The notes below the pieces were generated by a model. It ran no database searches. It worked only from the letters and a program-made list of their open reading frames with translations, and was not told where the DNA came from. The translations under genes and the position numbers were made by a program. Shown here one piece after another: positions 53,812 to 56,823 of a stretch of 64,000 bases of DNA. Position 1 is the first letter of the stretch, and each line of letters starts with the position of its first letter. The DNA is taken from assembly GCF_006345805.1 (NCBI RefSeq), contig NC_043011.1, forward strand, positions 67,158,464-67,222,463, in the 5' to 3' direction. This DNA is from Octopus sinensis (taxonomy: Eukaryota).

Positions 53812-55624
53812 TGTTTTAATTATTTTCGTTCACTTTACACTAATCTTCAGAAGATAACAGAGGTGTCTTACATTTTCAATAAGATCAGGATTGATCAATT
53901 TCTTTCTGTGGAAGGTAGAAACGACATAAATGAAATCTTTCTCAAATACGTCACCTCACGTAAATTATGCCCATATCTATTGTAACCCCTCTTTCCGAAG
54001 ATAATCTATCTTTGGGAAATCTGAATCCATAGTGTTAATCTCTCCCCCACCAAAAAACTATCGATTCCAATTCGCCACTGCTGTTGTGCTGTGCCTGTGA
54101 TAAAAGATTATAGTTTGGATCAAAAATCAAAATTTTCGAAGCCGTGTGTACGACCTTTGAGTTCCAAGTCTGGTTCGATAATGATGTATGATTTTCCAGG
54201 AATGGTGACTGTTTGGGCTGTCTATTGTATGATGGAAAATTGTTAATGAGTGCTCTTTCAACTCTGTGTAGCACAAGGTAGTATCTTGAGAGGGGAAATG
54301 TTTCACAGTGTCCATTACTGCTTTTTTGTTATTTGAAACAAAATCAGTGCTGATCGTTCAGGTTTTGTCTGTAAAAGCGTTCCAGTTTTGGTCGTACCAT
54401 ATTTCCTGCAATTGGTGTATTATTTAGGATAAGAACATAGAAAATCATCTCACCTTTTGAACTGAAGACTGAATATTTTCTAAACACCAACATAATTATG
54501 TTCCCCAGTTTTATTTTTGGTTTTTTTTTTATAAAGTCAGTGCAAAGGAACATCTCACAATGGATATATGCCCTGCCTAAGTATTAGCGACAATACTGAT
54601 CTTTTGCAGTCATACTAAAAGCTGGAATGACTGACATAGTATTGTTGACATTCAGAATTGCTTCAAACAAGAATCATTGCCGACAGTTCTTGTTACACCT
54701 AGTTCAGAAATAATTCCTTATCGAGCCACCTTCATCTTATAAACACACCAATCCACCACGGACACCTGTAAGACACCACACCAAAATCCGAACACACTGA
54801 TAATCCAAATGTTACGTGACTGATTTCTAATATCTCATGAGAAACGATACGACAGAGCGTCGTCGATTCAGGGTGTGTGCATTAGTTCCAATCTGTGCCT
54901 TACTGAGAATCTCTAAATATTTTGCACTCTATTTCAATCATGAACAACGAACTCCGAAATCATCTCAATAATCCGGCACATGACAGGGGCTGTTTTTGTT
55001 GACTTTAGATTGTCGAAAATCTTTCGCCATTATGGATAATGAGGAGAGCTCCAAACATTCAAAATAATGTCAATACCATATTGGTATTTATCTTAAGCTA
55101 ACAAATAAATTGCATGAAACGTCAGGTGTGACCAAAATAATCATTTCGTCCCTAAATAAATTTGTTTTAATAAGTGTACAACAAAGGAGACTTTGGAGCA
55201 CATTTATCGATTAAAAAGTGAATAAACAAAAGTAATCGATACATACGTGTGTGTGTGTACATGTGCGTGTGACCGTTTAAGCGAAGTTGGTGTGTTCACA
55301 GTGCCAAACTCTGATAATACCCCCGACCATTCTCTTTTACTTCTCGTCTTGACTGCTACTCATAATTGTAATTCAGTTCTGGTCGCAGATTTATTGAAAT
55401 TACAACATCCTTACGATACATACATGTATATATATATAAATATATATATATATAACAAAAGGGACATTAGCCATTTGAATGTGGCTAGGGACAGGGCAGG
55501 GCGGTGGGGGTGTTACTGATGCATTTAGCCCCAGGCGATCATCAACGTCACCAGATAGGCTTGACACCATCACGGTGTCCTCTATCCTGCAAAGGGAGAT
55601 CATTCCCCGAAGAAGCGGATGCCA

Positions 55625-55669
55625 CATACGGACCCAGGTTTCAAGGTGTTTGCCTCTCGTCAACTTATG
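55625..55669 (-). ncRNA. Type I hammerhead, C3U core variant
   Basis: Reverse complement cataag-TTGACGA-gagg(caaaca)cctt-GAAA-cctggg-TC-cgtatg. Confidence 0.7.
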
Positions 55670-55982
55670 GTAGGCACCGCCCCTCGACGAACGACTCTCT
55701 GTGCAGGATATTTATATATAGATTTTCACGTAAATACATTTACTGATTTCGAAAATCTGTTCGACAGCAATAATAATTCTCTAAACGAGATATAGACAGT
55801 AACTGCTCCATAACAAAAGGGACATTAGCCATTTGAATGTAGCTAGGGACAGGGCAGGGCGGTGGGGGTGTTACTGATGCATTTAGCCCCAGGCGATCAT
55901 CAACGTCACCAGATAGGCTTGACACCATCACGGTGTCCTCTATCCTGCAAAGGGAGATCATTCCCCGAAGAGGTGGATGCCA

Positions 55983-56027
55983 CATACGGACCCAGGTTTC
56001 AAGGTGTTTGCCTCTCGTCAACGTATG
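55983..56027 (-). ncRNA. Type I hammerhead, C3U core variant
   Basis: Reverse complement catacg-TTGACGA-gagg(caaaca)cctt-GAAA-cctggg-TC-cgtatg; perfect 6-bp stem I. Confidence 0.75.
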
Positions 56028-56505
56028 GTAGGCACCGCCCCTCGACGAACGACTCTCTGTGCAGGATATTTATATATAGATTTTCACGTAAATACATTTA
56101 CTGATTTCGAAAATCTGTTCGACAGCAATAATAATTCTCTAAACGAGATATAGACAGTAACTGCTCCATAACAAAAGGGACATTAGCCATTTGAATATGG
56201 CTAGGGACAGGGCAGGGCGGTGGAATGATCTCCCTTTGCAGGATAGAGGACACCGAGATGGTGTCAAGCCTATCTGGTGACGTTGATGATCGCCTGGGGC
56301 TAAATGCATCAATAACATTGCCCTGTCCCTAGCCACATTCAAATGGCTAATGTCCCTTTTGTTATGGAGCAGTTACTGTCTATATCTCGTTTAGAGAATT
56401 ATTATTGCTGTCGAACAGATTTTCGAAATCAGTAAATGTATTTACGTGAAAATCTATATATAAATATCCTGCACAGAGAGTCGTTCGTCGAGGGGCGGTG
56501 TCTAC

Positions 56506-56550
56506 CATACGTTGACGAGAGGCAAACACCTTGAAATCTGGGTCCGTATG
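56506..56550 (+). ncRNA. Type I hammerhead, C3U core variant
   Basis: catacg-TTGACGA-gaggcaaacacctt-GAAA-tctggg-TC-cgtatg. Confidence 0.72.
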
Positions 56551-56765
56551 TGGCATCCGCTTCTTCGGGGAATGATCTCCCTTTGCAGGATAGAGGACAC
56601 CGTGATGGTGTCAAGCCTATCTGGTGACGTTGATGATCGCTTGGGGCTAAATGCATCAGTAACACCCCCACCGCCCTGCCCTGTCCCTAGCCACATTCAA
56701 ATGGCTAATGGCCCTTTTGTTATGGAGCAGTTACTGTCTATATCTCGTTTAGAGAATTATTATTG

Positions 56766-56823
<58 letters not shown>

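Follow-up and report, generated by a model that had tools for sequence, protein, structure and literature searches.

A 358-nt hammerhead unit with a U3·G8 core in Octopus sinensis: a probable non-LTR retrozyme, likely inserted by Penelope-like enzymes

The stretch of Octopus sinensis DNA analysed here (64,000 nucleotides, called the window below) contains, at 55452-56767, a repeated non-coding unit whose hammerhead motifs carry U at core position 3. The locus raises the question of what kind of element this is, which enzymes placed it between two (TA)n tracts, and whether a hammerhead built around a U3·G8 pair can still work. The reading that we favour, with a probability of about 0.62, is that it is a non-LTR retrozyme, likely copied into (TA)n by the reverse transcriptase (RT) and GIY-YIG endonuclease of a Penelope-like element (PLE), and that its U3·G8 hammerhead has likely kept its cutting activity, at a lower rate than a C3-G8 one. 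Both the class of non-LTR retrozymes and the idea of their mobilisation by PLEs are already in print (PMC7229834; 10.64898/2026.07.22.740005), and in these texts PLEs are offered as movers from their co-occurrence with retrozymes and the likeness of the latter to PLE pseudo-LTRs (pLTRs).

Read as sequence, 55452-56767 is a single insertion between a left (TA)n tract (55427-55451) and a right one (56768-56799), and self-comparison of the window resolves it into a non-coding unit of 358 nt, arranged in tandem in two inverted arms. The left arm (55452-56223, minus strand, 772 nt) comprises two full units (55452-55809 and 55810-56167), which are 98.9% alike, and a 5'-truncated piece of 56 nt; its 3' end, at 55452, corresponds to unit position 358, has no tail, and is called terminus 1. 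The right arm (56222-56767, plus strand, 546 nt in total) has its units at 56222-56723, a partial one (56222-56365, 144 nt, unit positions 204-358 with a net deletion of 11 nt) and a full one (56366-56723), followed by an extension of 44 nt (56724-56767) that equals unit positions 1-44, occurs on this arm only, and is referred to as the tail; it finishes at terminus 2. At the inversion junction (56222-56223) the arms overlap with their 5' ends by 2 nt (GG), and the two outer ends of the insertion differ in unit position by 44 nt. An earlier note on this DNA had described a 358-bp unit repeated head-to-tail and then inverted, with its outer ends in (TA)n, and this description holds, the right end being 56767 rather than 56766. 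On the ribozyme strand near the ends, no ATG-started frame exceeds 30 codons, and the longest stop-to-stop frames measure 103-156 codons. One 30-codon frame (56343-56435, plus strand) begins in a conserved ATGGC hairpin and covers both termini; it could be a remnant of the start of a PLE frame.

Elsewhere in the window there are a 19-bp unit repeated about 3.5 times (57022-57087), 255 nt past the insertion, and a 42-bp tandem array (33630-36646) whose copies, about 70 in number, are 97% alike; at the left end of the array two of them are inverted. Possibly one inverted duplication accounts for a pair of long (TA/CA)-rich tracts (24576-26600 and 28172-30195), which have a period of about 217 bp and opposite orientation. 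Pieces of a PIF1 helicase (40308-41960) likely represent a Helitron remnant, a Mariner-type transposase frame of 297 codons lies at 16268-17161 (minus strand), and a weak zf-RVT match (48681-49556, minus strand) is likely a LINE fragment.

Three type I hammerhead motifs lie within 55452-56767, all with TTGACGA, stem II GAGG/CCTT, GAAA and a GTC site. The middle one, copy 2 (55983-56027, minus strand, predicted cut 55989/55988), is intact: it has stem I CATACG/CGTATG, U3·G8, stem II GAGG-CAAACA-CCTT, GAAA and the stem III octamer ACCTGGGT. Copy 1 (55625-55669, minus strand, predicted cut 55631/55630) has the core UUGACGA and one stem I mismatch (CATAAG), and copy 3 (56506-56550, plus strand, predicted cut 56544/56545) has the same core and the change C15.2>T (TCTGGG in stem III); both stem changes are private. 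The statement of the earlier note that all three copies have T at core position 3 is borne out by the three motifs, and its statement that every full unit has the same stems is correct for the middle copy and fails for the left and right ones. The motif did not arise in any of 5000 dinucleotide shuffles of the unit. Its core departs from the canonical C3-U-G-A-N-G8-A by the pair U3·G8, and stem II is closed by G10.1·U11.1, not by G-C. Stem III, of 2 bp with a tetraloop, and loop 2 (CAAACA/CAAAUA) match the canonical invertebrate type I form, the comparison for loop 2 being with the schistosome ribozyme. When 54500-57800 was scanned with Rfam covariance models at E values of up to 10, 12 matches were obtained, none of them to a hammerhead family.

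The two cuts in the left arm would release a predicted monomer of 358 nt (55631-55988, minus strand, placed from the motif positions), with 46% G+C and a folding energy better than that of its shuffles (z -2.8). Folding of the two-unit arm predicts stem II with a pairing probability of about 0.3 and does not predict stem III pairing between copies, a kind of pairing that nested folding cannot show. The read-through transcript of the whole locus is predicted to be 89% paired, so that the copy in the window may not be a source copy.

The next point is whether U3 belongs to this locus or to its family. In the genome searched (2.72 Gb, 13,516 contigs), the unit is dispersed on many chromosomes, with at least 150 matches of 87-100% identity when the best 40 of 1938 candidates were scored. 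A genome pattern search in the exact context of position 3 found T at 67 places and another letter at one, and within 52 loci of the window's family T3 occurs in 99 of 100 units and G8 in 101 of 101. These counts establish U3 as the state of the family and dispose of the local mutation that the earlier note had named as an alternative; the note's assignment of the unit to a dispersed family with non-LTR retrozyme architecture is likewise supported, by the tandem non-coding units, the hammerheads and the genome-wide copies. Three wobbles characterise the window's family, at 3·8, at 10.1·11.1 (74 of 102 units) and in stem III. A-to-I editing was considered as the source of the U·G wobbles and rejected, the shared changes (unpolarised) being nine A>G and five T>C, without clear excess. 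Within this family alone the 12 core columns hold no shared changes, which is not significant (10.6% of columns vary). Parts of the unit are present in 19 rows from seven sequencing studies, none of them on record as RNA; in four runs guessed to be RNA, the unit is seen in contigs only, which give no start, end, strand or circle.

When the hammerhead pattern was left open at positions 3, 4, 5, 7 and 8, the genome yielded a clan of at least 2416 hammerheads (the reversed-pattern control gave 0 matches); a pattern for the shared tail end gave 869 matches. The 3-8 pair is U·G in 251 copies, U-A in 225, C·A in 33 and C-G in most, the last being found in 77 among the first 100 matches listed, counted by eye. 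A8 is thus combined with U3 in 225 of 476 cases and with C3 in 33 of about 1900. Since most relatives carry C3-G8, CUGANGA searches would find the clan as a whole, and the loss amounts to about a fifth of its copies (476/2416); the earlier note's expectation that the U3·G8 core would be missed is therefore right as regards Rfam and overstated for a clan that is mostly canonical. Sister subfamilies of 348-353 nt (L140, L258, L142-L201) have C3-G8 cores, and some fold as circles at z -6 to -7, against about -3 for the window's family. Other subfamilies show C4 cores (CCGAAGA, CCGACGA) and mismatched stem II bases.

A tree was built from 147 hammerhead hits, of which 90 passed the filters and 83 entered as rows, with the hammerhead columns excluded. 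On it U3 requires two changes and position 8 requires eight. The window's family and a sister with a different palindrome, both U3·G8, are separated by 0.47 changes per site, a branch that recombination between subfamilies may have lengthened, and the U3·G8 branch also contains a U3-A8 subgroup. The root was placed at the midpoint, and for this reason the tree does not give the order of events; U3 itself marks one old branch of the clan.

Further evidence comes from the way in which the stems have changed. The stem III octamer is palindromic in at least five versions, being self-complementary as ACUCGAGU, ACUGCAGU, ACUAUAGU and ACCUAGGU, and with wobbles as ACCUGGGU and ACUCGGGU. Covariation was evaluated in 21 hand-picked, pattern-selected subfamily representatives, a set in which the 3-8 row pairs by choice of rows: 92.6% of cells pair and both sides change in 10 of 20 pairs, while 0-1 of 500 shuffles reach such pairing and slid controls fall to 22-51%. 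Because U3-A8 arose only about twice, these counts stand for few independent events. G5, A6, A9, G12-A14, U16.1 and C17 are invariant across the 0.47 branch, and the compensatory changes lie in stems I and III. Throughout the clan the base of stem II is loose, 10.1-11.1 being unpaired in 11 of the 21 representatives; a U·U at this place is reported for an axolotl retrozyme that works (PMC7229834). The hammerhead of the window's family and that of the C3 families are identical at 34-36 of 45 positions (76-80%), compared with 61-64% for the rest of the unit. Alignment folding of the 3' part gave a weak consensus of -12.5 kcal/mol with 9 of 34 pairs double-changed; its rows were truncated and the hammerhead was not recovered.

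The palindromic stem III, the covariation and the old U3 branch together suggest a U3 ribozyme that is selected, for its cutting fold and for pairing as a dimer, and that is likely slower and helped by dimerisation. We consider it probable that the U3·G8 hammerhead cuts. An account that shares the PLE mobilisation and departs at this point, and that we judge unlikely, holds that in this subfamily the hammerhead has almost lost its activity or can be dispensed with, that a multimeric transcript serves as template without being cut, and that the motif is kept as a protein-binding or spacing fold or simply by inheritance. It draws on a scan of a type III hammerhead in which every single mutant in the CUGA/G8 region, C3 and G8 included, was low in activity (PMC9901934), on the predicted frog retrozyme dimers, of which eight of nine did not cut (10.64898/2026.07.22.740005), and on an anole PLE whose insertion in vitro had no need for ribozyme cutting, no reads ending at the cut site (PMC11167929); the ribozyme of that PLE cut only with protein, according to the same source. 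The C4 cores and mismatched stem II bases of other subfamilies point in the same direction, as does the weak hammerhead of the commonest autonomous PLE described below. Against it stand the paired substitutions of stems I and III, which compensate each other, and the core positions that stay invariant across the 0.47 branch, with U3·G8 at both of its ends; in addition, the 33 C3·A8 copies are scattered, and no amplified subfamily bears a 3-8 mismatch.

How the unit is inserted can be read from its ends, whose two-site pattern is the strongest feature of the family and does not appear in the earlier note. The 52 loci used were chosen because they resemble the whole unit or contain a hammerhead pattern, a choice that favours long arms and intact cores. 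Two inverted arms are present in 35 of the 52 loci and one arm only in 17. Among the two-armed loci, 29 of 35 have one end at unit positions 353-358 and the other at 40-44, the remaining six have one such end, and in none of the 35 do the two ends fall at the same site. The 17 one-armed insertions all finish at one or the other of these positions. (TA)n adjoins 79 of 81 such ends. The 5' ends vary from arm to arm, 0 of 81 lying closer than 5 nt or at 5 nt to the cut site; 76 of the 81 arms run across that site, in a sample whose selection favours long arms. In the sister subfamilies the same two ends recur, about 46 nt apart.

It has been reported that an inverted 5'-truncated copy, together with a tail of 30-40 bp on one end, is a hallmark of PLEs (Craig et al., 10.1101/2021.04.23.441226), that the tail is the stretch between two internal RT start sites and is 'unique to PLEs' (Frangieh et al., PMC11167929), and that both target strands are cut and extended in PLE insertion (PMC11167929). 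The octopus insertions display two fixed 3' termini, an inverted 5'-truncated arm, a one-sided tail and a (TA)n target, and EN+ PLEs are present in the genome. The mobilisation by PLEs that the earlier note had put forward from prior knowledge of retrozymes thus gains direct support, from the two-site tail footprint in 29 of 35 two-armed loci and the 79 of 81 ends in (TA)n. The element very probably inserts in the manner of a PLE. Fixed ends and inverted arms being typical of PLEs, the unit likely borrows PLE enzymes, and it is very likely non-autonomous: no PLE coding match, such as an autonomous PLE would show between its pLTRs, was found by tblastn inside the window or the clan insertions.

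A rival reading takes the unit for the pLTR of an autonomous PLE outside those found, its copies being 5'-truncated leftovers. This we regard as very improbable. In its favour, PLE insertions are described as mostly truncated pLTR pieces (10.1101/2021.04.23.441226, PMC4209133), frog retrozymes match PLE pLTRs (10.64898/2026.07.22.740005), and only the best 150 of the 5029 GIY-YIG candidates in the genome were scored; among these, several lie in frames of 762-883 codons that give RT and GIY-YIG matches, the RT just under the Pfam cut-off. The RT + GIY-YIG frames measure 775-883 aa and contain the CxxxxCxxC linker motif. Within this scored set, the unit was not found as a pLTR in any of the 50 PLE loci read, and the autonomous families encountered there have 3' ends with no relation to it. 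PLE coding DNA lies near only 4 of 151 clan loci (tblastn), and in the three cases read (L094/L112, L116, L173) the unit-like arms, considered as candidate pLTRs, proved to be separate insertions of sister families, parted from the PLE by (TA)n or other DNA. Moreover, arms hold up to five units, directly consecutive and without a frame between them.

The commonest autonomous PLE, a 781-aa family (G000; L096:2032-5460, L099, L111), is abundant, has two overlapping frames of 479 and 781 codons, shows two ends 37-40 nt apart in (TA)n, and carries a weak, minimal U3-A8 hammerhead with an ACAUGU palindrome. It was examined as the partner of the unit; by eye, its tail has only a small CTCG..GAG hairpin in common with it. 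A second PLE family (L173, L074 flank) has a UUGAAAA core and the L094 family has CCGAAGA.

The differences between units bear on the template. Units diverge by 1.5% within a locus and by 4.6% between loci, subfamily markers are common to both arms of a locus, and of the 179 site-allele pairs that segregate within loci, 140 do so in a single locus. With a cut linear monomer the arms could reach no more than 178 or 222 nt, and most are longer, which leaves a circle or a uniform multimer that was not cut as the template. Arms that read through the cut site suit the uncut multimer of the near-inactive hammerhead as well as they suit a circle, and the mostly private differences within loci (140/179) fit a single-monomer template better than a mixed multimer. 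Under the preferred reading, a circular RNA of the unit is slightly favoured over its absence. In one long array (L254) private changes are common to three neighbouring units, which indicates that local duplication also adds units. This array, together with the long inverted arms, could recall a satellite or a foldback element that multiplied as DNA, by unequal exchange or template switching in replication, with the hammerhead as a relic; such an origin is hardly credible in view of the fixed 3' ends, the scattered 5' ends, the 44-nt offset between arms, the dispersal on many chromosomes and the covariation of the RNA structure.

If the unit is a retrozyme copied by PLE enzymes, its cycle might run as follows. 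A tandem copy would be transcribed, and its hammerheads would cut the multimer to 358-nt monomers, aided by two copies that pair via their self-complementary stem III; the monomer would then be ligated to a circle, as family knowledge and covariation suggest. A PLE protein would nick both strands of the (TA)n target, and reverse transcription would begin from two internal RNA sites 44 nt apart, one per DNA end, in agreement with the fixed ends observed. Each cDNA would pass the cut site and in many cases extend beyond one unit, on a circle or an uncut multimer, as the observed read-through indicates, and the two cDNAs would join at variable 5' ends, leaving the inverted arms and the one-sided tail that are seen. 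Some long arrays would finally extend by local duplication, as observed at one locus.

So far PLEs have been a candidate for the enzyme that moves animal retrozymes, and evidence from a genomic footprint is now added: a PLE-specific two-site tail on retrozyme insertions identifies the class of enzyme and supplies two precisely placed RNA start sites. No report of a PLE tail on retrozymes was found in the main texts of the literature searched, and the word 'tail' is absent from the available text of the preprint 10.64898/2026.07.22.740005. U at position 3 is in itself no novelty, contrary to what the earlier note implied, given that natural U3-A8 cores (PMC3088659; schistosome PLEs, PMC4209133) and a saltern UUGACGA core with a 2-nt insertion (cited in PMC7151607) are already in print; for a fixed U3·G8 in an animal element no report was found in the main texts searched, and an earlier one is possible. 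Within one scaffold, the clan offers a natural series of alleles of the 3-8 pair (C-G, U·G, U-A), and it bears on whether a wobble that seems crippling in mutational scans can function in nature or with the help of a protein. A bolder and decidedly tentative proposal is that the clan preserves, in fossil form, how PLE enzymes copied a small circular RNA: reverse transcription would have been of a two-ended rolling-circle kind, begun at two fixed internal sites, while the 3-8 tertiary pair walked from C3-G8 to U3·G8 and to and fro between U3·G8 and U3-A8; the wobble would then be a working, selected state that slows cutting so that circles stay closed until copied.

The closest known systems are the non-LTR retrozymes of metazoans (coral, mussel of about 350-390 nt, and axolotl; PMC7229834), which share with the octopus unit the tandem, non-coding organisation in repeats a few hundred nt long (its 358 nt lie in the range of about 170-400 nt for the class), the single type I hammerhead in each repeat, the short stem III with a palindromic loop, about 45% G+C, the dispersal as monomers to multimers, and the presence of PLEs in the same genome. 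Unlike those described there, the octopus elements have U3·G8 and U3-A8 cores fixed in amplifying subfamilies, and two fixed ends, inverted arms and a (TA)n target are mapped here, whereas the word 'inverted' is absent from the main text of that paper; RNA and circles were demonstrated there, and are predicted for the window's family. With EN+ PLEs (Neptune, Penelope/Poseidon, Naiad; 10.1101/2021.04.23.441226, PMC11167929) the unit has in common the inverted 5'-truncated arm, the tail on one end, partial tandems, a target that is AT-rich or (TA)n, and the location of the hammerhead upstream of the 3' ends; it differs in having no reading frame, a tail of 44-46 nt instead of 30-40 nt, and a canonical rather than minimal hammerhead, and a homologous pLTR was not found among the 50 PLE loci read. 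The non-autonomous elements of Chlamys, e.g. MRC1 (10.1101/2021.04.23.441226), are likewise non-coding, head-to-tail and inserted in the PLE manner, but they belong to green algae and to a clade described as without hammerheads, and their 3' ends match autonomous partners. Finally, the natural core variants reported previously (PMC3088659, PMC4209133, PMC7151607) share U at position 3, whereas the octopus genome offers an uncompensated U3·G8 without insertion, in about 250 genomic copies and at least two diverged subfamilies, standing beside U3-A8 and C3-G8 relatives in one clan.
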